Source of the DNA: Bacteroidota bacterium
GTDB lineage: Bacteria > Bacteroidota > Bacteroidia > Bacteroidales > NBLH01
Assembly (NCBI GenBank): GCA_025361565.1
Contig: JANYKN010000081.1
Location: 13,353 to 77,352 of the forward strand
Length of the DNA: 64,000 nt
Direction of reading: 5' to 3'
This document shows, one piece after another, positions 49,086-61,539 of the stretch (the first letter of the stretch is position 1; the number at the start of each line of letters is the position of its first letter). The position numbers and the translations under genes were made by a program. Below the pieces are notes generated by a model that worked only from the letters and a program-made list of their open reading frames with translations, was not told the DNA's origin and did no database searches.

Positions 49086-49537
49086 CTTTTTTCTAAGTAA
49101 AGTATTAAATTTTTCGCATATTAATTTTATAAATCTAGCTTTAAGAACTTTTTTAATGCCTTTATTTTTGATCAATTGTGATGTTTAAAAAAAATCCTGA
49201 TTTTTTTATTCAAAAAAAGTATTGGAATAAAACTTCCATTCAATGAATTAGATTGACAATAAGGATCAAAATAATCATAGAATTAAGACAATTATATCTT
49301 ATTTTATACACAAATTAAAATTTAGCCTGATTTTTGACACATAAAATAGCAATATCCAAATTATCATAAAAATTATCTTTTACCAATAAATCAATAACTA
49401 CAATAAACAAAAATACGAATACGTACAATAAATGATTTTAAATTGATATTTTTTTTTGTAATTTGCTGATTGATTGAATAAACTAATTTATGAACTCACT
49501 CCAAATAATTGCCAATTCTAATAAAAACAGTTCAACA

Positions 49538-51886
49538 ATGAAAACTATTATTTTTCGAATTCTAATTTCTTCATGCTTATTATTAACTGCAATTAATATT
49601 TCTGCTCAAAGCGCTAAAAAATACTATAAAACAGCAAAAGAATTCAGTAAATCAGGCAGTTTTGACGAAGCAATTGAAAATTACACAAAAGCAATTGACC
49701 TTGATCCACAATTTACAAAAGCATACATTGAAAGAGCTTCGGTTTATGAAGAACTTGGTCATCTAACAGAAGCAGCGGAGGATTACAAAACATTGTCAGA
49801 TCTTTTACCCACGGAATATATTTGGCTATATAAAACTGCCTCAATCAATTATATGCTTAATAAATATATTGTAGCTATCACTTTTTTAAATTCAGCATCC
49901 GAACTTGAAGAAAAGGATTCCAAAATATTGGAACTTAAAATGCGATGCGATATTGCATTGAGTAATTTTAAATCAGCATTAACTGATTGCGATGGAGCCA
50001 TTCAATTAAACCCATCAGCTGAAAATTATTATTACCATGGTATCATTCAAAAAAAACTTGAGAACTATCTACTTTCAGAAGCTGATTTTAATGCATCCTT
50101 AAAAGTAGATCCGAATTATATTAACTCTTATATTGGTTTGGGGGTTGTAAAATTAAAGCAGAATAAAACAGAAGATGCCTTATTATCAGTCAATAAGGCA
50201 ATTCAAATAGATAATAAAAATAAGGAAGCATTAATGCTCCGAAGCCAAATCTATAAGAAAAAATCAGAAATTCCATCAGCGATAAATGATTTATCAACTC
50301 TAGTCCAGTTTTATCCTGATGATGAAGAAATTCTTTATCAGCGTGGAATGACTTATTATGACAATAATCAATTCCAGAATGCTTTGGCAGACTTTAGTAA
50401 AGTTTTATTAAAGAATGAGAAAAACAAATCTGCACTTTACAAACGTGGAAATACTTATGAAAAGCTTGGAAAAAATGATGAAGCTTTAAAAGATTACGAA
50501 AAACTTTTGAGTATAAAAATTGCCGGCGATGATTCAACTCAAATTTATAAAATAGCAGCAGAAAAATTGTATGAATTAAATAGAGAGAATGATTCTCCAA
50601 TTATTTCTATTGTTTCTGAAAAGCTTCTTGCAGATAAATCAATTGGAGTTCCTGATAACATTGAGGAAACCCAATTGATAATTAAGGTGAAAGATAAAAA
50701 CAAAATTCAAACACTAATTGTTGATGGCAATAATTTGAGATTTAATGCCGATTCGCTATCATCTGGATTTACTGTAACTATAAATATCAAAAACAAAAAA
50801 AAGATTACCATTGAAAGTGAAGATATTTATAAAAATAAAGCAATATTGGAATTAAAACTGACAAGAAATGAAACAATTCCTCCAACAATTGCAATTCTAA
50901 CACCTTATGTTTCAGAAAAAAACGAAATATTTGTTGATCCTCAAATTCCTGAATTTCTAATTGAAGGAAGAGTTATGGATGATAGTAAAATTGCTTCGAT
51001 TGAAATAAATAGAATACAAGCAAAATTTAATAATACTGAAAATAACCCAAAATTTTCAGTCAAAATTAATCCAACAAATAAGGACCAATTGGAATTTATA
51101 GTTAAAGATATTTATGGAAACGCCGAGGTTAAAACATACAAAATAAACCGAAATGTAGCTGAATTAATTAATAATAACCCAATGGGCAATACTTGGGTGG
51201 TTTTTATCGAAAACACTGAATACAATGCATTTACAAGTGTAAAGGGACCAGAAAAAGACGTTAGCATGATGAAAAGCGCTCTTTCAAAGTATCAAATCAA
51301 CAACATTTTACACAAAAAGAATATGTCCAAACAGCAAATGGAAAAATTCTTTAATACTGAACTTCGCGATCTGGTTCGTGATAATCAGGTAAATTCGATT
51401 CTAATCTGGTATGCCGGTCTAGGAAAATATATTAACGAAAATAGTTATTGGATTCCGACCGATGCAAAAAGAGATAGCGAAATGAGTTATTTTAATATTA
51501 ATTCCTTAAAATCTTCCATGCAAGCTTATACAAAAAATATTACACATACCCTTATTGTAACAGATGCTTGTGAAACAGGGCCATCATTTTATATGTCCAT
51601 GCGATCATTGCCCACTGAGCGGGATTGTAACAATCCAAAAGCTACCAAATTCAAATCATCTCAGGTATTTACTTCAGCTGGATATGGCTTGGCTGATGAA
51701 AACACCCAGTTTACAAAAACATTTGCTAATTCTTTGAATTTTAACAACAATGGCTGCATCCCAATAGATAAAATTGTAATAAAAGTTTCTTCAGTTGTAC
51801 AACAAAATGATAACCAAAAACCGAAATTTGGTAAAATCGCCGGGTTTGAAGATGAAAATGGCACTTTCATTTTCATTAAAAAATAA
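49538..51886 (+). CDS. Exported TPR-repeat / Ig-like / caspase-fold (peptidase C14-like) protein; catalytic His replaced
   Basis: Signal peptide from ATG 49538; about 9 TPRs; two beta-sandwich-like repeats (PIISI...EDIYKN and PTIAI...KDIYGN); C-terminal LIWYAGLG...YWIP.DA...TDACETG. Confidence 0.8.
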   Translation: MKTIIFRILISSCLLLTAINISAQSAKKYYKTAKEFSKSGSFDEAIENYTKAIDLDPQFTKAYIERASVYEELGHLTEAAEDYKTLSDLLPTEYIWLYKTASINYMLNKYIVAITFLNSASELEEKDSKILELKMRCDIALSNFKSALTDCDGAIQLNPSAENYYYHGIIQKKLENYLLSEADFNASLKVDPNYINSYIGLGVVKLKQNKTEDALLSVNKAIQIDNKNKEALMLRSQIYKKKSEIPSAINDLSTLVQFYPDDEEILYQRGMTYYDNNQFQNALADFSKVLLKNEKNKSALYKRGNTYEKLGKNDEALKDYEKLLSIKIAGDDSTQIYKIAAEKLYELNRENDSPIISIVSEKLLADKSIGVPDNIEETQLIIKVKDKNKIQTLIVDGNNLRFNADSLSSGFTVTINIKNKKKITIESEDIYKNKAILELKLTRNETIPPTIAILTPYVSEKNEIFVDPQIPEFLIEGRVMDDSKIASIEINRIQAKFNNTENNPKFSVKINPTNKDQLEFIVKDIYGNAEVKTYKINRNVAELINNNPMGNTWVVFIENTEYNAFTSVKGPEKDVSMMKSALSKYQINNILHKKNMSKQQMEKFFNTELRDLVRDNQVNSILIWYAGLGKYINENSYWIPTDAKRDSEMSYFNINSLKSSMQAYTKNITHTLIVTDACETGPSFYMSMRSLPTERDCNNPKATKFKSSQVFTSAGYGLADENTQFTKTFANSLNFNNNGCIPIDKIVIKVSSVVQQNDNQKPKFGKIAGFEDENGTFIFIKK

Positions 51887-51931
51887 CAATATAAAGTTTG
51901 CACTACTTAATAAACCAAAGTTTAAAATAAA

Positions 51932-54900
51932 ATGGAATTCATTAAATATCAATATTTTAAATTAAAATTTAAACTTCCTTTCCTAGTATTTTTTACAATT
52001 TTAAATGTTGAAGTTTCAATAGGACAACAATATTATTTTGACAATTACAATGTTAAAGAAGGATTGGCTCAATCTACAGTTTATGATGTAATTCAAGACG
52101 CAAAAGGTTATTTATGGATAGGAACTGCAGCAGGTCTTTCGAGATTTAATGGCATACAATTTACCAATTACACCCAAGAAACCGGATTAGCGAAAGATGC
52201 AGTCCAAAAGATATTTCAAGATTCAAATGGCAATTTGTGGTTTGGACATAAAGGTGGTGGATTAAGCCGATTAAAAAATGACAGCATTCAATTTATACAA
52301 CCTGATACTGTTGTAGCCGATATCACTGCGATTGTTGAAGACAATGATGGAAATATTTGGATTGGAACCCATGGATCCGGTGCTTTTAAACTAAAAAACC
52401 CTAATGTAAATTCACTAAAAAATATTGACTATATCCAATATAAAGGTGGCAATGACAAGTTTAACGATTTGGTATTTTCCATCTTAAAAGCTCAAGATGG
52501 AACACTTTATTTTATTGTAGACTGGGCCATAAAGTATTTTGACTCCAAGGAGAAATCATTCAAAAATTACAGTCCTAAAAATTTAACTCAGTTTTATCAA
52601 TTCACATGTATTTACGAAGACCACAGTGGAGATTTATGGTTTGGAACCGTAAATGGTGGCCTTATTAAATCAAACAAAGATGGCACATATTCTATTTTTA
52701 CAGAAAAAAACGGACTAGCTCATAATTTAATAACTTCGATAAAGGAAGATAAAGACAATAATATGTGGATTGGCACCTGGGGTGGAGGTATTAGTCTGAT
52801 TAAAAATAATATAATCACTAATTTTAATCTCGACAATGGTTTACCTGATTTAAAAATACGCTGTATAAAAGAAGATTTTGAAGGAAATATATTGATCGGA
52901 ACCTACGATAATGGACTTTGCGTATTTAAAGGCCAACATTTTATCAATTATTCGGAAAAAGATGGTATAAAAGGCAATCACATTTGGGCTATTCTTGAAG
53001 ATAAGGAGGGTAAATTTTGGTTTGGCACTAACATGGGAATTACCGTTTGTACAAAATCAGGTAATTCATTTACAAATCCGATTTATTATAATGAAGAAAA
53101 CAAAAAAATTTCCGGCAACCTAATTCGGTTTTTAAATGAAGACAAAAATGGGAATATTTGGATTGGCACTGAAAATGCCGGCGTTCTAGAATACCAAAAA
53201 AAAACCAAATCATTTGATTACAGCTTTTTAATTAACGGAAATATTCAGCAAAGCAACATGGTTACTGCCATGGAAATTGACAATAATAACAATTTATGGA
53301 TTGGAACTTCAGATGGATTAATCAATTATGAAATAAATACCGATAAAGTTGCTTTTATAACTACAAAGTATGGAATTGCAGGTAATGATATAAGCGCCTT
53401 ATTTCATGACTCTAACAACCAATTATGGATAGGCTGCATACGAAATGGTCTTACACTTTTCAATGAAAAGGATACTTCCTTCCATATTATAAAAAATGGT
53501 TTTCAATTTACACCAACCTGCATAACCGAATCAACTGATAAAAAAATATGGGTAGGGACGCAAGCAAATGGCGTACTCGTTTTTGAAGGTGCAAGATTGG
53601 TCAGGCAATATAAAATATCAGATGGATTGCTGGCAGATTATATCACCAGTATTATTTCAGGAATCAATGGTGACGTTTATATCGGAACAAGCAGAGGTTT
53701 AAACAAATACAATCAGACTCAGAACCGGATTTTATCATATTCTGAAAAAACCGGATTTATTGGAATTGAAGTAAAAAAAAATGCAAGCTTTAAAGATAAA
53801 GATGGTAATATATGGTTTGGAACAGTTAAAGGTGCAACGCGTGTTGACATATCATATGCTCCGAGTAACAATCTGGAACCTATTACTTTTATTAGCAGGC
53901 TGAGGGTAAACTTAAAAGATACTAAATTATCTCCTAATCTTTTGCTGAAACACACTGAAAACTCTATTATTTTTGATTATACCAGCATTTGTCTTACAGA
54001 TCCTAATGCGGTAGTTTATAAAATAATGCTCGAAGGTGCAGACAAGGATTGGAGACCCGAAACAAATCAAACAACAGCAAGCTATTCAAGCTTACAGCCT
54101 GGCGCTTACACCTTTAAAGTAATTGCTAAAAATAGTTTTGGAATATGGAATTCTGAACCTGCAATTTTTACTTTTACAATTAGGCCTCCGCTTTGGAAGT
54201 CACCTTGGTTTTACATGTTTATTGGTCTTGTTGGATTTTCTTTAATCTTGTTATATATAAAAATCCGGGAAAGTAATTTAGTTAAAGAAAAAAAAGTACT
54301 GGCAGAAAAAGTTGAGGAACGAACTATCGAAATCAGCAAAAAAAACAAAGAACTTGAACTTAAAAACAAAAACATTACTGATAGTATTAAATATGCAAAA
54401 CGCATACAGGATGCAATGCTACCAGATTTGGATTATTTGAAACAAATCATCAATGATTTTTTTATTCTTTATAAACCCAGGGATATTGTAAGTGGTGATT
54501 ATTATTGGGCTACAAAAAAAGGAGAACATCTGATTTTTGCGGCGGCAGATTGCACTGGTCATGGTGTTCCCGGAGCTTTTATGAGCATGTTGGGTATTAC
54601 TGTACTTGACGAAATTGTGAACAAAAAAAACATATTTGATTCAAACCAAATACTTGACGAAATGCGTGAAGCGGTTATTAAATCGCTAAAACAAAAAGGA
54701 TTGCGTGGCGAAGCCCAAGACGGCATGGATCTTTCCCTATGTTCCATCAACACAAAAAATCTGGTAATGCAATATTCTGGAGCTTATAATCCTTTATATA
54801 TTGCAAGAGATGGCGAACTTATACGATATAAAGCCAATCGCATGCCAATTGGGATCTACTACAAAAATACTTCCGGATTTAGCTGCCAAACCATCCAACT

Positions 54901-55129
54901 TCAGAAAAATGATATCATTTATTTATTTTCCGATGGTTATTTGGACCAATTTAGTGAAATGAATGGTGAAAAATTAATGCTGAAAAACTTCAGGCAATAT
55001 CTCTTAGAAACTTGTCATTCACCATTAAATGAGCAAAAAGATTTTCTTGAAAACAAATTAAAAGAATGGCAAGGTAATGCTGAACAAGTAGATGATATTC
55101 TTGTTTTTGGAGTCAGAATTGATTTTTAG
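51932..55129 (+). CDS. Periplasmic beta-propeller (Reg_prop) + Y_Y_Y + TM + SpoIIE/PP2C phosphatase
   Basis: Repeated EDxxGNxWxGT blades; YSSLQPGAYTFKV; PPLWKSPWF TM; ADCTGHGVPGAFMS, DGMD, FSDG, DDI. Confidence 0.92.
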   Translation: MEFIKYQYFKLKFKLPFLVFFTILNVEVSIGQQYYFDNYNVKEGLAQSTVYDVIQDAKGYLWIGTAAGLSRFNGIQFTNYTQETGLAKDAVQKIFQDSNGNLWFGHKGGGLSRLKNDSIQFIQPDTVVADITAIVEDNDGNIWIGTHGSGAFKLKNPNVNSLKNIDYIQYKGGNDKFNDLVFSILKAQDGTLYFIVDWAIKYFDSKEKSFKNYSPKNLTQFYQFTCIYEDHSGDLWFGTVNGGLIKSNKDGTYSIFTEKNGLAHNLITSIKEDKDNNMWIGTWGGGISLIKNNIITNFNLDNGLPDLKIRCIKEDFEGNILIGTYDNGLCVFKGQHFINYSEKDGIKGNHIWAILEDKEGKFWFGTNMGITVCTKSGNSFTNPIYYNEENKKISGNLIRFLNEDKNGNIWIGTENAGVLEYQKKTKSFDYSFLINGNIQQSNMVTAMEIDNNNNLWIGTSDGLINYEINTDKVAFITTKYGIAGNDISALFHDSNNQLWIGCIRNGLTLFNEKDTSFHIIKNGFQFTPTCITESTDKKIWVGTQANGVLVFEGARLVRQYKISDGLLADYITSIISGINGDVYIGTSRGLNKYNQTQNRILSYSEKTGFIGIEVKKNASFKDKDGNIWFGTVKGATRVDISYAPSNNLEPITFISRLRVNLKDTKLSPNLLLKHTENSIIFDYTSICLTDPNAVVYKIMLEGADKDWRPETNQTTASYSSLQPGAYTFKVIAKNSFGIWNSEPAIFTFTIRPPLWKSPWFYMFIGLVGFSLILLYIKIRESNLVKEKKVLAEKVEERTIEISKKNKELELKNKNITDSIKYAKRIQDAMLPDLDYLKQIINDFFILYKPRDIVSGDYYWATKKGEHLIFAAADCTGHGVPGAFMSMLGITVLDEIVNKKNIFDSNQILDEMREAVIKSLKQKGLRGEAQDGMDLSLCSINTKNLVMQYSGAYNPLYIARDGELIRYKANRMPIGIYYKNTSGFSCQTIQLQKNDIIYLFSDGYLDQFSEMNGEKLMLKNFRQYLLETCHSPLNEQKDFLENKLKEWQGNAEQVDDILVFGVRIDF

Positions 55130-55193
55130 CATAAACCGCTTCAAATACATTTATTAAACTCAGATTCTTAAACCTCTAAGAATAAAATAATAT

Positions 55194-55224
55194 TTTGCTC
55201 GTTTCTTATTAGTGTTTAAATTCG
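55194..55224 (+). promoter_or_regulatory. Candidate promoter of the four-gene operon
   Basis: TTTG (55194-55197), 19-nt spacer, TAAATTCG (55217-55224, one mismatch to TAnnTTTG). Confidence 0.5.
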
Positions 55225-55269
55225 TAGAACTATAAAAATGCACATAAATAATTTAAAAACAGAAATGAT

Positions 55270-55920
55270 ATGAAAACATCCAAACAAATCAACACATTGA
55301 ATTTGATAAAGAACACTTTGATTTTAATGGCATTGGCTATGCTTTTAGTTGGCCCGGCAGGCTGTAAACCAAAAAAACCAATCGTAAAAGATGATCCAAA
55401 AGAAAATCAAGATCAGGTAAATGCGCAATTGGTTAAAGCAAAATCAACATTAACAGAACTTTTAAGCCCTGAGTGCACAAAAAGCATTGAAGAAAAAGAA
55501 AAAATTGTTGCCGATATTAAAGCACTTAACCTTAAAGATCAAGGTTTAAATGATTTAATTGCTCAGGTTGAAACCAGCATTGCAAATGAAAAGGAGGCAA
55601 TCCGCATTGCAGATGAAAAAGCAAAAGAAGCTGCCAAACCCGAAAATAAATTACGAAAGTACTTCAAGGATATTGCAAGTGCATCCAGCGATGCTGAAGC
55701 CAATACATTAATTGAAGAAGCAATTGGCATGTTTGTTTCCGATCAGGCTAATGTTCTAATTATTATAAGCCAGGACGAACATATGAAGGATTATGACAAA
55801 CCAACAAAAATCAGAAAATATTTAAATTATCTAAAAGATTCAAAAAGCAACATAAACGATGTTGACCAAATTCATTGGGAAGGTGATAAAATCAAAACTC
55901 TTGAATTGAAGAAGAAATAA
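55270..55920 (+). CDS. Hypothetical lipoprotein: coiled coil plus an unnamed C-terminal domain
   Basis: Hydrophobic signal ending VGPAGC followed by KPKK; helical middle; C-terminal KLRKYF...EANTLIEEAIGMF...IRKYLNYL. Confidence 0.75.
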   Translation: MKTSKQINTLNLIKNTLILMALAMLLVGPAGCKPKKPIVKDDPKENQDQVNAQLVKAKSTLTELLSPECTKSIEEKEKIVADIKALNLKDQGLNDLIAQVETSIANEKEAIRIADEKAKEAAKPENKLRKYFKDIASASSDAEANTLIEEAIGMFVSDQANVLIIISQDEHMKDYDKPTKIRKYLNYLKDSKSNINDVDQIHWEGDKIKTLELKKK

Positions 55921-56028
55921 TCGTTCAAAAAACAATTGCTTATCAAATATTATGAATATAAGATTTTAAATAATTTTCTATATTCATAATGTGCATTAAT
56001 TATCATTAATTCAATTAAATAATTAGAC

Positions 56029-56607
56029 ATGAAAAATATAAAAATGATGCTTGCGATTTTTTTCGTTATCGCATTTTTCCAAAAAATATCAGCGCAGGAT
56101 AATATCAGTCCTGAGCGTAAAGCAGCAATCGATTCTTTAGCTCTTGAAAAAGTTAGGGACCTGAGTAAATACATCAGTATTTTAGGTGATAAAAAAACTC
56201 CATTTTCTGAAGCAAATAGGGTAATTGACAGAGCATTAGAACTCTTTATGCCAGGCAGCATCATGGGTGTATCTTCACTCTACCGTAAAAAAATCACCAA
56301 CTATCCTATTAAGGAATATCTTCAAAGATTAACAAGGCTTAACTACCAAAGTGTAAGCATAACATGGTTTAACATACAGTATGTAAGCGATTTGGTAAAA
56401 CAGCCTGATGGAAGATATGTAGGTGTGATAACGATATTCCAACGTTTTGAAGGAGTTACTAAAGAAGGCTTAAAATATGTTGATGTTACAAAAAAAGACA
56501 TCACTATTTACGTTGAACGCAAACAAACCCAAATTGATGGTATTCCTGTTGGATTCTGGGATGTGCTTCTTGGTGATATCAGAGTTAAAGAAACAACCAA
56601 AGGTTAA
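56029..56607 (+). CDS. Hypothetical exported protein (possibly NTF2-like alpha+beta fold)
   Basis: Signal peptide ISA-QD; DLSKYI...EANRVIDRALELF...IKEYLQRL followed by long beta strands. Confidence 0.75.
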   Translation: MKNIKMMLAIFFVIAFFQKISAQDNISPERKAAIDSLALEKVRDLSKYISILGDKKTPFSEANRVIDRALELFMPGSIMGVSSLYRKKITNYPIKEYLQRLTRLNYQSVSITWFNIQYVSDLVKQPDGRYVGVITIFQRFEGVTKEGLKYVDVTKKDITIYVERKQTQIDGIPVGFWDVLLGDIRVKETTKG

Positions 56608-56624
56608 AATTCTTCCAATTAAAT

Positions 56625-56661
56625 AAAAGCACTATTAAAGCAACTTGCTTATAGTGCTTTT
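56625..56661 (+). terminator. Intra-operon hairpin (terminator or RNA stabiliser)
   Basis: AAAAGCACTAT...ATAGTGCTTTT with a T run. Confidence 0.5.
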
Positions 56662-56682
56662 TATTAAACTAAAACTTAAATT

Positions 56683-57516
56683 ATGTGTAAATTCTTTCTT
56701 TTCGCTATTGTTTTTATTACTCTTCTTGAAAATACTTCTGCACAAATTATCAGCAACAATGGGCAGGAAGACGAAACAACCTTGTATGCCTCCACAAAAC
56801 AGGTTAATCAATTTATAAGGAGATTTAATGGAGAGGAGGATTTACATGGTGTCCGTTTATATCCCAAAGACAAAAAATACAGGGATCCTTCTTTACGAAA
56901 AAGTTATCTTATCAACTTGTTTGACTCAGAAAACAGCAACCTCAAAGCTCAAAAAGATGAATTTATTACTTGTGTCAATTCATCAGGGAAACCACAGTTT
57001 TTCGATTTTTATGGAGAAAACTGGCTTGCAGAGGTTTCATCTAAATTTCTTTATAATGGTAAAGAACAGGATGTTGTTATGTTTTTTAAGCTCGAAAAAG
57101 AAACTGGAGGATATAAATGGTCCTTTGCAAACGTATATGCAAGTTTTTTTGAGCAGGAATTTAATACCAGCCCACCAACCGAGACTAAATTTATTCATCC
57201 TATGAGTCACGAAATTGACTTTATGAGCCTGGATAAAATATTTGAATTCAACCACAAACAAATCGAACATTACGCATACAAGAATTTTGCGCCTGATTAT
57301 TTAAGCCTTTTTTTCCACGAAGTAAAAAAAGGAAATCTTGTTTATCAATCGGTAACTGATGTTAAATTCCATAACTTTCAAATTGAGAACTGGTATTTCG
57401 AAATGCAATATTTCAACAGAAAAGGAGATAATACAGGGTGGTTAATTTCAAACCTGATTAAAATACCTGAAAAAGATAAAGCTTCATTAATTAAATCAAT
57501 CAATCATGAAAACTAA
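56683..57516 (+). CDS. Hypothetical exported protein
   Basis: Signal peptide TSA-Q; 277 aa; its stop overlaps the next start (11-bp overlap). Confidence 0.75.
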   Translation: MCKFFLFAIVFITLLENTSAQIISNNGQEDETTLYASTKQVNQFIRRFNGEEDLHGVRLYPKDKKYRDPSLRKSYLINLFDSENSNLKAQKDEFITCVNSSGKPQFFDFYGENWLAEVSSKFLYNGKEQDVVMFFKLEKETGGYKWSFANVYASFFEQEFNTSPPTETKFIHPMSHEIDFMSLDKIFEFNHKQIEHYAYKNFAPDYLSLFFHEVKKGNLVYQSVTDVKFHNFQIENWYFEMQYFNRKGDNTGWLISNLIKIPEKDKASLIKSINHEN

Positions 57517-60127
57517 TCGCTTCCTCATTTTATGCGCATCTTTTGTTTTGCTTTTTGCATTTATTACAATAGATGCTGATGCTCAAAAAACAAAAACAAC
57601 TACCAAGTCAAAAACTACTACTACTAAAACAAAAACAACAGCAAATAAAACAACAACAAATAAAACGAATACTAAAACAAAGGCTACCGATCCTGTTAAA
57701 GAAGATCCAAAAACCGGAGATGAAGAATATAAAAAACAGGCAGCCGAGCTTATCGATTTTTTAGCAGGAACGCTTAACGCCATCGGGAGTGAAAATACTC
57801 CTGTTTACGAAAAACAAATTATGATCAATGAAAGTTTTAATAAAATTTTTGCTGATGACAAAGTTCAAGTTGAGGACGATTTAGATGAACACCGTGAAAT
57901 ATATGCCTATAAAGATGTTCAGGCATATTTACAGGATGTGGATTTTTTCTTTAAAGATGTTACTTTCAGTTTTAAAATTGAAAGCGTTGAATCAATGAAG
58001 AACCTGGATGGTGAAACCGTTTATAAATTTAAAACAATCAGGCATTTAAAAGGGCTTACCATAGCCAACGATAGTGTTAATTCTATGATTGATCGATACA
58101 TAGAAATTAATTTAAATGAAACAGATCAAAGCATGAAAATTGTGAGCTTGTATACAACCAAGCTTAACGAATCGGCAGAGACTTTAAAATGGTGGGAAGA
58201 CTTATCGCCGGAATGGAAAAATATACTGAAAACAAAGAGCGAAATCAGCGATCCGGTCGATTATACAAAACTGAAATCTGTTTTGAAAATCACAGAACTC
58301 GATCTTTCAAATAATGCCAATATAACAGATTTAAATCCTTTGGTGAAACTTTCCCGGCTTAAACACCTTGATGTCAGTAATACTAAAATAGCTGATTTAT
58401 ATCCTATCCGAAACCTGAACAAATTAGAAGTTTTGGATTGCTCAAACACCGGCGTTTCAAGCATTGAACCATTACAATATGCATCCGGCCTGCAAGATTT
58501 GTTTTTTGATAATACAAAAGTACAAGACATAACTGTTGTTGAAAATTTCAAAAACCTTAAAAAATTAAGCTTTGAAAACACCTCTGTTTCAAATATTGAT
58601 GCTTTAATTGAACTTGATATGCTTGAGGATCTGCGCTTATCAGCAACACTGGTTGATTCACTCGATATTCTTAAAGAATTAAAAAACATCAAACATTTAA
58701 AAGCAAATTCAATTCCAATAAAATCATTAAGCGGAATTGAAAATCTAAACGGATTGGTACAAATTAGTTTTTCTTCAACTCAGGTACAGGATATTAGCCT
58801 CCTAAGTAAATTTGACAACCTTGAAGTAGTCTATTTTGACAATACAGGCATTAAATCGCTGGCAGCTTTGGCGAATAACAAAAAACTTGAAAAAATATAT
58901 TGTAACAATAGTGGGATAAATGCTGCAATTGCCGGAGATTTCATCAAAACTCATCCAAAATGTCTTGTTATTTATAATTCGGATTTGTTAAAAAAATGGT
59001 GGGAAGCAATGACTCCCGAATGGAAGCAGGTTTTCAATTCGCAATTGAAAACGGATAAACCAACAGTCGAACAATTACACCAACTCACTCTTATTCAAGA
59101 GCTAAATATTGAAGGGAAAACAGCTATTACGAGCCTCGAACCAGTAAGCAAATTCACTAGTTTGAAAACCTTGAATATTTCAGGAACATCAGTAAGCGAT
59201 TTATCTCCAATTCAGAATCTTATTGATTTACAATCCTTTGATTGCTCAAAAACTAAAATAATAAAACTTGATGATTTGGCCAGTTTGAAGAGATTGGAAT
59301 CTTTTAATTGCTCTAATACTGGGGTTACGCAGCTTACTCCACTCGCAACTTGCGATAATTTGGAATTGATCGGTGCTGAAAACACTCAAATTTCTAATTT
59401 AAATGGATTAGAAAAACTGGGCAGGCTTAAAAAGATTTTTGCAAATAATACCGTCCTGACTAAAGAAGCCGTCTCTATATTTAAAAAAGCGAATCCTGTA
59501 TGTTTGGTCATATACAGGACGGAAGAATTAAATAAATGGTGGGGATTGGTTGAAGACGATTGGAAAAAAATATTCAAAAGATATGTTGATTATGCCGACC
59601 CACCAACAGGCGAACAATTACACCAAATTACAGTACTCAAAGAAATTGATGTAAAAGATCAAACCGAAATTAAAGGTTTGAAACCATTGGAAATGCTTGA
59701 AGATTTGGAAGTTTTAAAATTTACAGATACTCGTGTAAATGATTTGGTATCGATTAAAGGATTAACAAATTTAAAAGAGTTGGTTTGTCCAAAAAATCCG
59801 ATTTCATCACTTGATGCAATAAGTGGTTCTAAAAATCTTGAAGCTTTGGATTGTTCAAGTACCGAAATATCAGATTTAACACCTTTGACCAGTTTAACAA
59901 ATTTAAAAGTTCTAAAAATATCTGGCACTAAAGTGCGTAGCCTAAAATCCCTAAGTGGGCTTAAGTCATTGGCACTCCTTGATATTTCAGGAACAAAAGT
60001 GTTGCTTGTAAATCCGATATCAGAGCTTGGCAACCTTAAAGTACTTAAATGTTACAATACAAAAATTCCTAAATTTTTAATGAAGAAATTTAAGGAAGCA
60101 AATCCAAAATGTGAGGTAGTTGAATAA
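57506..60127 (+). CDS. Exported leucine-rich-repeat protein with N-terminal unnamed domain and three capped LRR modules
   Basis: Signal peptide ADA-Q; T/K linker; 22-aa internalin-like repeats (e.g. LKHLDVSNTKIADLYPIRNLNK). Confidence 0.88.
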   Translation: MKTNRFLILCASFVLLFAFITIDADAQKTKTTTKSKTTTTKTKTTANKTTTNKTNTKTKATDPVKEDPKTGDEEYKKQAAELIDFLAGTLNAIGSENTPVYEKQIMINESFNKIFADDKVQVEDDLDEHREIYAYKDVQAYLQDVDFFFKDVTFSFKIESVESMKNLDGETVYKFKTIRHLKGLTIANDSVNSMIDRYIEINLNETDQSMKIVSLYTTKLNESAETLKWWEDLSPEWKNILKTKSEISDPVDYTKLKSVLKITELDLSNNANITDLNPLVKLSRLKHLDVSNTKIADLYPIRNLNKLEVLDCSNTGVSSIEPLQYASGLQDLFFDNTKVQDITVVENFKNLKKLSFENTSVSNIDALIELDMLEDLRLSATLVDSLDILKELKNIKHLKANSIPIKSLSGIENLNGLVQISFSSTQVQDISLLSKFDNLEVVYFDNTGIKSLAALANNKKLEKIYCNNSGINAAIAGDFIKTHPKCLVIYNSDLLKKWWEAMTPEWKQVFNSQLKTDKPTVEQLHQLTLIQELNIEGKTAITSLEPVSKFTSLKTLNISGTSVSDLSPIQNLIDLQSFDCSKTKIIKLDDLASLKRLESFNCSNTGVTQLTPLATCDNLELIGAENTQISNLNGLEKLGRLKKIFANNTVLTKEAVSIFKKANPVCLVIYRTEELNKWWGLVEDDWKKIFKRYVDYADPPTGEQLHQITVLKEIDVKDQTEIKGLKPLEMLEDLEVLKFTDTRVNDLVSIKGLTNLKELVCPKNPISSLDAISGSKNLEALDCSSTEISDLTPLTSLTNLKVLKISGTKVRSLKSLSGLKSLALLDISGTKVLLVNPISELGNLKVLKCYNTKIPKFLMKKFKEANPKCEVVE

Positions 60128-60144
60128 AAATTCAAATTACAGCA

Positions 60145-60176
60145 TAAAAAAAGCCGGCTTTAACCGGCTTTTTTTA
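60145..60176. terminator. Bidirectional intrinsic terminator
   Basis: AAAAAAAGCCGG-ctttaa-CCGGCTTTTTTT between the convergent LRR gene and tRNA-His. Confidence 0.85.
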
Positions 60177-60181
60177 TTTAG

Positions 60182-60256
60182 GGTGGATGATGGGGTTTGA
60201 ACCCACGACCCTCGGAACCACAATCCGATGCTCTAACCAACTGAGCTACAACCACC
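60182..60256 (-). tRNA. tRNA-His(GUG) with encoded G-1
   Basis: GGTGGTTGTAGCTCAGTTGGTTAGAGCATCGGATT-GTG-GTTCCGAGGGTCGTGGGTTCAAACCCCATCATCCACC. Confidence 0.95.
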
Positions 60257-60268
60257 ATTTAAGGAGCG

Positions 60269-60301
60269 CAAAGGTAATAATTTTTTTAGTACTTGAGCAA
60301 A
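60269..60301 (-). promoter_or_regulatory. tRNA-His promoter
   Basis: -33 TTTG (60298-60301), 21-nt spacer, -7 TACCTTTG (60269-60276). Confidence 0.7.
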
Positions 60302-60744
60302 TTATTTATAAAAAAATCATTGCTCTTATTTCTTGGCAATTCCCTTTCATCAAGCTATCTTGTCAAACTTGATAAATTTCAATCTTTTTTGGATTTAACT
60401 TTCGATGCAATGCAAGTTGTAAATAGCGAATATCCTGATTTAGTAACCGTTAATGTCAGCCAATAATCATATTTTAATGTATAAATAACTTCTTAAACTT
60501 ACAATTAAGAAGTTATTTTCATTTATATATTATGGGACTCTTTATGTAAATTTTGGCAATTGTATCATGGAATAAATATTTATCAAAAAAAGGAATAACT
60601 TGATAATATTTTGGATTTGACCATAGATAATCTTTGTTATCTTTCGTTTTTACAATAAAAATAATTGAAATTTCGTTTTATTCAGAAATTTTTAATGATT
60701 AATATATTTAGTCGGATTTATTGTCAAACTTAAATTTTAAAGCA

Positions 60745-61539
60745 ATGAAAATTAATTATTTAATTACTCTATTGTTCTTATTTACTTTATTTTCTTGCCA
60801 AAAACAAGAGATGAATGAGAATCAAACAAATCAATCAATTAACAGCAAGGTAAATGTCAGACTTACTGATGCTCCTGCGGATTATGAGGCAGTTTGGATC
60901 GACATCCAGGGTATTGAATTCAACCTTTCTACAAGTGACGGAGAAGGCAAATGGATTTCGCTCGATAGCATTAATAAAGGTTTATACAATCTTCTCGACT
61001 TTAGCAATGGTAAAGACACTTTGCTTGTTTCCACTGATTTAGATTCAGGATATATTTCACAAATCAGGTTAATACTTGGAGATAATAACAGCATAGTTAC
61101 TTCCGAGGGAACCTTTGATCTGAATGTACCTTCTGGCTCAACTTCAGGATTAAAAATAAATTTACACGAAACATTTGATTTAGGAGTTATCAAAAATATT
61201 TGGATTGATTTTGATGCTTCCAAGTCAATTGTAAAAACCGGTAATGGAAAATTTCTGTTAAAACCTGTACTAAGAGCTTTTACTAAAGTTGTTGGTGGTG
61301 CAATAAAAGGCTATGTAAATCCAAAAGAATCTTTACCCTCCGTTTTTGCAATTTTAGGAACTGACACAATAGGCACAAAGGCTGATACAAGTGGATATTA
61401 TTACATTGGTGGACTTCCAATCGGATTTTATTCTGTAAAATTTGATCCAATTGACCCGTATCTTGATTTGGTTATTGACAGCGTTCAAGTTAAAAGTGGA
61501 ATGGAAACAGACCTAGATACCATAACTATCAATAAATAA
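60745..61539 (+). CDS. DUF4382-domain lipoprotein with C-terminal carboxypeptidase-regulatory-like domain
   Basis: Lipobox LFSC; VRLTDAP; SQIRLILG; DFDASKS; LKPVLR. Confidence 0.85.
   Translation: MKINYLITLLFLFTLFSCQKQEMNENQTNQSINSKVNVRLTDAPADYEAVWIDIQGIEFNLSTSDGEGKWISLDSINKGLYNLLDFSNGKDTLLVSTDLDSGYISQIRLILGDNNSIVTSEGTFDLNVPSGSTSGLKINLHETFDLGVIKNIWIDFDASKSIVKTGNGKFLLKPVLRAFTKVVGGAIKGYVNPKESLPSVFAILGTDTIGTKADTSGYYYIGGLPIGFYSVKFDPIDPYLDLVIDSVQVKSGMETDLDTITINK

Follow-up and report, generated by a model that had tools for sequence, protein, structure and literature searches.

The window, the whole 64,000-nucleotide stretch of Bacteroidota DNA that was analysed, carries four co-oriented genes, g1 to g4. 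Their open reading frames on the plus strand occupy 55270-60127, as the preliminary description had placed them (Table 1). The g3 and g4 reading frames overlap by 11 nt. The genes have the structure of an operon, with median gaps in related loci of 6 nt between g1 and g2, 83.5 nt between g2 and g3, and -11 nt between g3 and g4, and a single terminator after g4. The terminator proposed at 60145 proved to be real: a perfect hairpin begins 18 nt past the g4 stop codon. A sigma-70 scan, whose model does not extend to Bacteroidota promoters, had no entry at 55194-55224, where a candidate promoter had been marked.

Table 1. The four genes, their domains and the neighbouring features, in window positions
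Feature	Position	Strand	Description and basis
Membrane sensor phosphatase	51932..55129	+	Reg_prop propeller, Y_Y_Y, SpoIIE/PP2C-type (Pfam); context gene upstream of g1
g1	55270..55920	+	216 aa, lipoprotein; ORF
g1 C-terminal domain (g1C), residues 118-216	55621..55917	+	related to helical N-terminal half of g2 domain
g2	56029..56607	+	192 aa, exported, predicted NTF2-like protein; ORF and model
g3	56683..57516	+	277 aa, exported; ORF
g4	57506..60127	+	873 aa, exported LRR protein; ORF
g4 N-terminal domain (g4N), residues about 68-216	57707..58153	+	predicted NTF2-like; model, Foldseek, VIA-align, hhalign
Three LRR modules of g4, residues about 222-492, 493-672, 673-873	58169..60124	+	motifs, Pfam stretches
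Two-way intrinsic terminator hairpin	60145-60176	no strand	perfect, A7/T7 arms; between g4 and tRNA-His
tRNA-His	60181-60255	-	convergent with g4

A gene-neighbourhood survey showed that synteny is kept: of 80 related genome loci, 71 have g1, g2, g3 and g4 side by side. A contig end interrupts five of the nine that lack the full set. L018, L039, L078 and L083 have ample DNA, yet one or two members are missing beside g2, indicating that the four-gene set is not obligatory in cis. The order of the four genes is stable across bacterial orders, among housekeeping neighbours and outside any mobile-element context. Flanking genes are variable, the largest flank cluster comprising 15 loci. These observations support the four genes as a conserved, self-contained cassette.

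Export signals were assessed by eye from the sequence, and they bear out the earlier reading that all four proteins are exported and that g1 is a lipoprotein. The hydrophobic N-terminus of g1 is followed by a lipobox cysteine, Cys32, which is invariant in an alignment of 65 homologues. The N-termini of g2, g3 and g4 are also hydrophobic and are followed by Ala-Gln, the Gln being invariant in both the g2 and the g3 alignments; this cleavage context agrees with the Bacteroidetes Q-rule (PMC5837995). In surface lipoproteins of Bacteroidota the lipidated Cys is followed directly by an acidic export signal, K-(D/E)2 or Q-A-(D/E)2 (PMC5080379). The signal in the form described there is absent after the g1 Cys, which opens a basic stretch, Cys-Lys-Pro-Lys-Lys, and only 1 of 54 lipobox-bearing g1 homologues has Asp or Glu at +2 to +5. 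The T9SS C-terminal sorting domain was not found in g4 at E≤0.1 with the Pfam model Por_Secre_tail, which does recognise this domain in gene neighbours at other loci.

A pattern of about 60 residues had been drawn by eye across g1, g2 and g4N. Pairwise BLASTP among the three segments gave nothing significant (E 0.47, 0.08 and 0.64), and hhalign with shallow profiles gave weak matches (P 2e-4, 0.07 and 0.1). Against a deep profile of the g2 family the pattern became significant, in the same register as originally drawn, with g1C matching at Prob 94.8% (E 4.9e-8, 68 columns) and g4N at Prob 72.6% (E 3.2e-5, 129 columns). The g1C HMM matched 59 of 150 g2-family representatives at E≤1e-3 and none of the reversed or shuffled sequences. 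These profile results show that the pattern reflects real remote homology. No profile link joined g3 to g1C, g2 or g4N, and g3 appears to be unrelated to them. The profile alignment paired g1 122-193 with g2 39-107, which is the three-helix half of the domain only, and supports a g1 that carries about the helical half of an NTF2-like domain. This g1C contains an invariant Asp-Tyr-Asp-x-Pro loop at residues 174-178; upstream of it, the middle part of g1 is helical.

Structure models assigned the fold. The AlphaFold2 model of g2 (pLDDT 94.2) shows three helices (28-53, 59-70 and 94-103) together with four long strands. VIA-align superposed it on 3rob_A with Z 14.7 (rmsd 2.3, 129 residues aligned) and returned 171 chains at Z≥8, among which the 50 listed are all NTF2-like folds. 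The model of g4 residues 66-250 (pLDDT 85.6) has the same order of elements as g2; it matched NTF2-like chains in Foldseek at E 1.5e-4 and gave Z 14.0 to 3soy_A and 13.9 to 3rob_A. The top structural neighbours are common to both models. Thus g2 and g4N are predicted to form NTF2-like alpha+beta cones, with three helices on a curved antiparallel sheet. The paralogous NTF2-like domains suggested earlier stand for g2 and g4N by folds and profiles, and for g1 over about the helical half. Pfam and NCBIfam hold no family for g1, g2, g3 or the g4 N-terminus, and no curated family matched 10 distant g2-family proteins.

Complex prediction covered one protein pair, g1C with g2. The three runs gave ipSAE values, which are the model's own confidence, of 0.87, 0.78 and 0.77 (median 0.78), compared with 0.00 for the best control. 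Of 80 solved complexes 58 attain the pass mark, as do 2 of 110 mismatched pairs. At least 85% of contacts were common to the runs, with pLDDT of 91-92 for g1C and at least 90 for the partner. Of the six invariant residues in g1C, five fall within the predicted interface (hypergeometric p 0.003), an enrichment that is not independent of the model, which used the same alignments that define conservation. On the g2 side, invariant residues were not enriched at the interface (16 of its 30 residues are invariant, p 0.24). A natural g1-g2 fusion that omits the g2 signal peptide, P0123, was found as a single protein on one contig, and a search for longer forms of g1 gave no hit. The prediction supports binding of g1C to g2, and this pair is the part of the previously proposed hetero-oligomer that is supported, by the controlled prediction and the natural fusion.

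g3 has 909 homologues, none with a name, and matched no Pfam, NCBIfam or PDB profile; a His-Pro-x-Ser-His-Glu motif (172-177) and His230 are invariant. g4 runs from the signal peptide through a Thr/Lys-rich linker and the NTF2-like domain to three LRR modules. Its identity as an LRR protein was confirmed by Pfam LRR_4 (E 2.7e-48 in 7 stretches), together with LRR_14 and LRR_8, all above cut-offs. Each module starts with a Trp-Trp helix (229, 498 and 678), the first of which is present in the model of residues 66-250, and Asn-Pro-x-Cys ends the last two modules (663 and 866). Assignment to the class 1 internalins InlA, InlH and InlK was rejected, at 26-151 bits against NCBIfam cut-offs of 1050-1600. 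The LRR type is nevertheless that of class 1 internalins and NEAT-LRR proteins (LRR_4, with local internalin-model matches). g4 differs from such bacterial surface proteins in having no wall anchor or sorting domain and in combining three modules with an NTF2-like head.

This four-gene unit represents the LRR-armed branch of a broader family of Bacteroidota cassettes, newly recognised here, that consist of a g2-like gene, a g3-like gene and a gene for an NTF2-headed solenoid protein whose arm is TPR or LRR. Of 73 metagenome loci with enough room, 60 have a g3-like gene after the g2-like gene, and a large ORF comes next in 29 of 34. The 29 large products include 21 TPR and 4 LRR proteins, and the N-termini of the TPR proteins matched g4N at Prob 98.1% (E 9.4e-14).

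In our preferred reading, to which we give an even chance, the four genes encode a periplasmic, lipid-anchored scaffold whose core is joined by g3 and the g4 head and bears an LRR binding arm. The g1 lipoprotein would be the anchor, its C-terminal half-domain clamping g2 through the invariant Asp-Tyr-Asp-x-Pro loop. NTF2-like domains frequently pair with one another, and g3 and the NTF2-like head of g4 would join the g1-g2 core. The three LRR modules may act as a long arm that binds partners, and the wider family keeps its g2-like, g3-like and NTF2-headed components while exchanging the arm between TPR and LRR. The interpretation in the preliminary description thus survives in part, namely in the conserved cassette, the shared domain, the predicted g1C-g2 binding and the novelty of the system.

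Two known assemblies resemble such a scaffold. Nxf1/TAP (Mex67) combines LRRs and an NTF2-like domain in one chain and pairs with the small NTF2-like Nxt1/p15 (Mtr2). The cassette likewise has LRRs with an NTF2-like head in g4 and a small NTF2-like g2; a g2-g4N pairing would be the putative equivalent. The Nxf1-Nxt1 NTF2 pair (6ihj_B) is a structural neighbour, with Z 11.4 to g2 and 11.0 to g4N. However, Nxf1 belongs to eukaryotic nuclear mRNA export, common descent beyond the fold is not indicated, and the cassette has in addition the lipoprotein g1 and g3. VirB8-type domains are NTF2-like periplasmic assembly scaffolds of type IV secretion; TraM (3wz3) appeared among the structural neighbours at Z 11.0 and 10.1, and CagV (6iqt) at Z 10.2. 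Those proteins are anchored by an inner-membrane helix and encoded in secretion gene clusters, whereas no such genes flank the cassette.

The neighbours of the wider family raise the possibility that the cassette is an extracytoplasmic sensor for Ser/Thr phospho-signalling, in which the arm binds a ligand and the NTF2 core relays to a membrane Hanks-type kinase or PP2C phosphatase, as in a split receptor kinase. Where at least 1200 nt extend past the solenoid gene, as they do in 21 TPR-type loci, a PP2C gene is present in 9 (directly adjoining in 6), a protein kinase gene in 8 and either one in 11. The Pfam domains were present in all cluster members, 9 of 9 and 13 of 13, and in one representative of each enzyme a single hydrophobic span follows the catalytic domain. 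The window itself has a SpoIIE/PP2C-type membrane phosphatase whose propeller is large and periplasmic; its gene lies on the same strand and ends 140 nt before g1. This gene adjoins the unit in 5 of 10 same-genus loci (L002, L003, L006, L007 and L010) as well as in L013 and L016, the genome loci closest to the window. The link in LRR-type loci is nonetheless local: L013 and L016, the closest by identity, account for the 2 such phosphatases among 57 Pfam-tested upstream neighbours, the remainder being unrelated housekeeping genes, and 10 of the 21 TPR-type loci have neither enzyme. The C-terminal part of four kinases aligned with the full length of g1C, but weakly and not significantly (P 0.018). 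On balance we regard the sensor reading as unlikely. A broader version seems more doubtful still: a widespread periplasmic recognition system in which a fixed core (a g2-like NTF2 protein, g3 and an NTF2-headed protein) with swappable arms reports, in many lineages, to membrane Ser/Thr kinases and PP2C phosphatases. The system would be a bacterial, multi-protein counterpart of an LRR receptor kinase. Within the LRR branch, g1 would then occupy a docking place perhaps taken elsewhere by the outer domain of the kinase. If so, the cassette may offer Ser/Thr phospho-signalling in bacteria a new route of input.

The NTF2-like cones might instead be the working parts, with g2 and perhaps g4N binding or converting a small envelope molecule (a lipid, glycan fragment or cofactor) that the other proteins position or deliver. 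g2 is the most conserved member, with a median identity of 68% over 80 loci compared with 35-47% for its partners. This is about the conservation of core machinery across bacterial orders and would fit a ligand pocket or enzyme. Lys55, Tyr97, Tyr106, Asp127, Tyr130, Gln138, Tyr150, Asp152 and Lys156 are near-invariant in the broad family; those of these polar and aromatic residues that lie on strands of the AlphaFold2 model fall at alternate positions. Most of the nearest folds belong to enzymes and binders of small molecules: LinA, scytalone-dehydratase-like and ketosteroid-isomerase-like proteins, SnoaL cyclases and iota-carbonic anhydrase. Superposition of the g2 and g4N models on members of the superfamily (3rob, LinA 3a76, scytalone-dehydratase-like 3ef8, 3soy and the CaMKII hub) covers 122-130 residues, with Z of 12-14.7 and rmsd of 2.0-2.5. 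The identity is, however, 5-11%, and none of the superfamily's families in Pfam or NCBIfam gives a match. The cassette domains also differ in being exported, in their longer hairpins and in the roughly half domain of g1. A common fold does not show function, many NTF2-like domains serve interaction only (CaMKII hub, Nxf1-Nxt1 and TraM/CagV, all in the same match lists), and the sequences from g1 to g4N match no curated enzyme family in Pfam or NCBIfam. We therefore consider this small-molecule role improbable.

A surface role fares worse. A surface adhesin resembling internalins or BspA, displayed with the help of the small proteins, would fit the matches of the g4 LRR region to NCBIfam models of internalin type (E 6e-44 to 2e-37), but these score 129-151 bits against family cut-offs of 1050-1600 bits. 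With no T9SS sorting domain in g4, no surface-export signal at the g1 Cys and carriers that are mostly free-living Bacteroidota of sediment, soil and water, an adhesin is very improbable. Some defence systems use LRR and TPR sensors, but an anti-phage or anti-predator system is scarcely credible here, as none of the four proteins matched a PADLOC-DB 2.0 family at E≤0.01, the PHROGs match was confined to the LRR region, every protein is exported, and the stable gene order and neighbours described above speak against it. The adhesion or defence role offered in the preliminary description was thus not borne out. The same three results, no PADLOC match, no T9SS domain in g4 and no surface-export signal in g1, suggest that the cassette proteins are periplasmic rather than on the surface.

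Curated families, solved structures searched by sequence and the literature yielded nothing describing the four-gene system, in line with the earlier view that it is undescribed. A scaffold that combines a fixed core with an LRR or TPR arm open to exchange would be a novel design for envelope protein complexes in Bacteroidota. For three of the four proteins the families, though common, have no curated name. The g2 family has 4789 near-length relatives and, at 50% identity, 1051 clusters; a relative is present in at least 585 species genomes, and cultured carriers include Rapidithrix thailandica JCM 23209 and Agaribacillus aureus BMA12.

The four genes described earlier as one co-oriented unit for exported proteins were recovered as plus-strand ORFs at 55270–60127, with an 11-nt overlap between g3 and the LRR gene g4. 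The proposed terminator at 60145 was likewise found, as a perfect hairpin with A7/T7 arms that separates g4 from the convergent tRNA-His gene. A sigma-70 promoter scan, which is not a model of Bacteroidota promoters, returned sites not above those in shuffled sequence and none at the suggested 55194–55224. A 61-aa ORF at 60187–60372 (+) overlies tRNA-His, which is encoded on the minus strand, and was rejected as spurious. With the two genes upstream, a TPR protein and a sensor phosphatase, g1–g4 form a run of six plus-strand genes from 49490 to 60127.

Features of the window and of kinase genes at related loci (likeness of the kinase tails to g1C not significant)
Feature	Sequence	Coordinates	Strand	Description
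Exported TPR protein	Window	49490–51886	+	798 aa, N-terminal TPR repeats (Pfam)
Sensor phosphatase	Window	51932–55129	+	1065-aa membrane protein; Reg_prop propeller, Y_Y_Y, SpoIIE/PP2C-type phosphatase domain
g1	Window	55270–55920	+	Lipoprotein, 216 aa, ORF
g2	Window	56029–56607	+	192 aa, ORF
g3	Window	56683–57516	+	277 aa, ORF
g4	Window	57506–60127	+	LRR protein, 873 aa, ORF
Terminator	Window	60145–60176		Hairpin
tRNA-His	Window	60181–60255	−	Convergent with g4
Kinase, g1C-like tail	L115	4159–5517
Kinase, g1C-like tail	L115	6156–7667
Kinase, g1C-like tail	L141	14998–16473
Kinase, g1C-like tail	L160	2277–4691

The preliminary description had also drawn, by eye, a pattern of about 60 residues shared by three of the proteins. 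Pairwise BLASTP among g1, g2, g3 and the g4 N-terminal domain (g4N, residues about 68–216) was not significant, and the three shared segments gave E values of 0.47, 0.08 and 0.64. Shallow profiles of 64–79 orthologues gave weak hhalign signals (P 2e-4 for g2 with the g1 C-terminal domain, g1C, residues 118–216; 0.07 for g2–g4N; 0.1 for g1C–g4N), which fell in the register of that pattern. Searching 1.84 billion cluster representatives with the g2 profile returned 1051 proteins at E ≤ 1e-3, and 142 diverse members from the 150 listed were aligned as a deep g2-family profile. Against it, g1C and g4N scored Prob 94.8% (E 4.9e-8, 68 columns) and 72.6% (E 3.2e-5, 129 columns) in hhalign, respectively, and g3 gave no score. 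HMMs of g1C and g4N matched 59 and 16 of the 150 listed representatives at E ≤ 1e-3, respectively, with 0 reversed and 0 shuffled control matches for g1C and 0 reversed and 1 shuffled for g4N. With these deep-profile matches and controls near zero, the homology of g1C, g2 and g4N is real, despite the BLASTP null. Neither the whole of g3 nor either half showed a relation to g1C, g4N or the g2 family, and the two halves did not resemble each other.

Predicted models of g2 (pLDDT 94.2, pTM 0.83) and g4 66–250 (pLDDT 85.6, pTM 0.77) each contained three helices and four long strands. For g2 and g4N, Foldseek returned NTF2-like chains at E 7.6e-4 and 1.5e-4, respectively. VIA-align placed g2 on 3rob_A (Z 14.7, rmsd 2.3, 129 aligned) and g4N on 3soy_A (Z 14.0, rmsd 2.0, 122 aligned), with 3rob, 3a76, 3ef8 and 3soy heading both lists. 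Since both methods returned NTF2-like chains, the earlier guess of an NTF2-like fold was right for g2 and g4N; g1 has just the half of the domain that holds the three helices, and a short tail comes after it.

Complex prediction with g2 (25–192) and g1 (118–216) gave ipSAE values of 0.87, 0.78 and 0.77 (median 0.78; best control 0.00). Of reference pairs, 58 of 80 solved complexes attain the pass mark, as do 2 of 110 mismatched ones. Contacts agreed among runs by at least 85%, and partner pLDDT was at least 90. The predicted interface joins g1 173–178, an invariant Asp-Tyr-Asp-x-Pro loop, to g2 175–179 and the first helix of g2. It includes five of the six invariant residues of g1C (p 0.003), an enrichment that is not independent evidence because the model saw the same alignments; invariant g2 residues were not enriched there (16/30, p 0.24). 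One homologous protein, P0123 (469 aa), is a g1–g2 fusion with a linker in place of the g2 signal peptide; it was seen once, on one contig. A dedicated search found no longer or fused g1 forms, weak evidence by the tool's own rating. The prediction supports, and does not show, g1–g2 binding. The earlier observation was thus confirmed and its interpretation as an envelope complex partly supported: both the NTF2-like homology and the predicted g1–g2 contact stand, and the full complex, the ligand-binding arm and any physiological role are inferred.

Conservation of the gene order was examined in 80 related loci, where g1 occurred in 79, g3 in 76, g4 in 71 and the complete set in 71. Five of the nine incomplete loci stop at a contig edge; the other four have room yet lack members (L018 and L039 hold g1 and g2 only, L078 g2 and g3, and L083 is without g4). 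Median identity to the window was 68% for g2, 47% for g3, 37% for g1 and 35% for g4. The flanks were variable, with a largest flank cluster of 15 loci and upstream neighbors ranging from MutS to nucleoside phosphorylase. A one-genome-per-species scan confirmed at least 585 relatives among at least 599 candidates, whose record titles included Bacteroidales, Lentimicrobium, Cytophagales, Cyclobacteriaceae, Flammeovirgaceae, Rapidithrix, Agaribacillus and others. The spread was patchy: g2 was present in 10 of 11 same-genus genomes and in 6 of 29 further families in the order. An even sample of the phylum, comprising 401 near-complete genomes, contained it in 8, of which 7 belong to one family. 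In the window's own genome, g2 itself is the single member of its family. A same-genus genome carries a distant g2-like gene (207 aa, L093 6889–7512) that stands alone in another neighborhood, without a g3 or solenoid gene. Among sequencing runs listed as containing the unit there were none of RNA, and the four of DNA belong to one study and may represent the source sample.

A second g2-like gene in genome G424 was the entry to a parallel cassette, encoding a 435-aa protein that is g2-like in its C-terminal domain, a homologue of g3 (E 9e-36) and, last, a 949-aa protein that consists of TPR apart from an N-terminus matching g4N (E 5e-9). In genome G408, adjoining g2-like and g3-like genes lie beside a TPR protein, which is unrelated to the one encoded upstream in the window. 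A metagenome scan with 32 long-form proteins as queries returned 80 loci. The g2-like gene was present in 78, a g3-like gene came next in 60 of the 73 with at least 600 nt downstream, and a large ORF followed in 29 of the 34 with at least 2400 nt beyond the g3-like gene. These 29 ORFs comprised 21 TPR, 4 LRR (3 of them orthologues of the window type), 3 without a family match and 1 BatD-like. Over their first 270 residues, the 21 TPR proteins matched both g4N (Prob 98.1%, E 9.4e-14) and the g2 family (Prob 94.0%). Because of this gene order and these N-termini, the conserved core comprises a g2-like protein, g3 and a solenoid protein with an NTF2 head, whose arm varies. In this metagenome scan, significant g1C matches outside the g2-like gene were confined to window-type (LRR) loci; weak ones (E 3e-5 to 5e-5) were seen in L103 and two long forms of the TPR type, in each case inside the locus's own g2-like gene. 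One TPR-type locus encodes two large proteins with NTF2 heads (L122 8312–11347 and 12303–15212), which suggests that the arm gene is duplicable. In six metagenome loci (e.g., L148 9222–10532), an OmpA-family protein with carboxypeptidase-regulatory-like and OmpA domains occupies the usual g3 place after the g2-like gene. The cassette would form a periplasmic scaffold, tethered by the lipoprotein and bearing an exchangeable binding arm; this is the most likely reading, in which our confidence is about even.

Signaling enzymes were frequent beside the TPR-type cassettes. Among 21 such loci with room, 9 had a PP2C gene, 8 a protein-kinase gene and 11 either; the Pfam domains were confirmed in 9 of 9 and 13 of 13 cluster members. 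In the one representative read per enzyme type, the catalytic domain is followed by one membrane span. In the window, the sensor phosphatase, with its periplasmic propeller, ends 140 nt upstream of the cassette on the same strand, and the 798-aa TPR protein, whose C-terminal third looks caspase-like by eye, lies 45 nt upstream of the phosphatase. Only close relatives keep this phosphatase: it occurs at 5 of 10 same-genus loci and accounts for 2 of the 57 upstream neighbors tested. Ser/Thr kinases beside TPR-type cassettes carry an end domain of about 100 aa that aligns with full-length g1C, not significantly (hhalign P 0.018), and this likeness is only a lead. With these neighbors on one side and their restricted occurrence on the other, a sensor for Ser/Thr signaling is possible and, in our judgment, doubtful.

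A ligand-binding or catalytic role of the NTF2-like cones, a fold returned for two of the proteins, is a second alternative, slightly less probable than the signaling one. Sequence and profile searches of the PDB with g2, g4N and g3 gave no meaningful relative, with best E values of 0.57 and 0.027 for the first two and no match for g3. Separately, g3 residues 172–177 are an invariant His-Pro-x-Ser-His-Glu, joined by His230, in 70 LRR-type orthologues. Any metal or catalytic site of g3 would be specific to the LRR branch, because the motif reads Asn-Pro-Ser-Asn-His-Asn in the TPR-type paralogue of L095.

Export of all four proteins, as first described, was borne out by reading the sequences. 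The hydrophobic N-terminus of g1 runs up to Cys32, which is invariant in 65 homologues; the residues after it are basic, with Asp/Glu at +2 to +5 in 1 of 54 lipobox-bearing homologues. The Bacteroidota surface-export signal, K-(D/E)2 or Q-A-(D/E)2 directly after Cys (PMC5080379), is absent from g1, so the lipoprotein probably faces the periplasm. In g2, g3 and g4, hydrophobic N-termini are followed by Ala-Gln, with Gln invariant in the g2 and g3 alignments; this context fits the Bacteroidetes Q-rule, which applies to signal peptidase I substrates (PMC5837995). Pfam gave g4 no type IX sorting domain and found LRR models in it (LRR_4 E 2.7e-48); taken with the probable location of g1, surface adhesion is unlikely. 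Matches of g4 to NCBIfam internalin models were far under family cutoffs, and that assignment was rejected. Defense we also regard as unlikely: PADLOC returned nothing for any of the four proteins, and the LRR part of g4 was the sole PHROGs match.

No family match was found for g1, g2 or g3 in Pfam or NCBIfam, and the clusters recovered from the ESM Atlas were all unnamed and from Bacteroidota, except that one for g2 bears the automatic name NTF2 family. Literature on NTF2-like/LRR proteins, lipoproteins, periplasm, operons and Bacteroidetes, as far as its accessible text goes, yielded no paper on such a cassette. Of 4789 near-length g2 relatives, the 120 listed had no Pfam domain on record, and the listed relatives were named "hypothetical protein" except for two. 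These, P0031 and P0042, bear one source's label [quoted passage not shown], which is without support from sequence or model and is probably a carried-over misannotation. Downstream in the window, 60721–61539 (+) encodes a DUF4382 protein that resembles a lipoprotein and has a weak carboxypeptidase-regulatory-like tail, and whose adjacency to the cassette is not kept in other loci.
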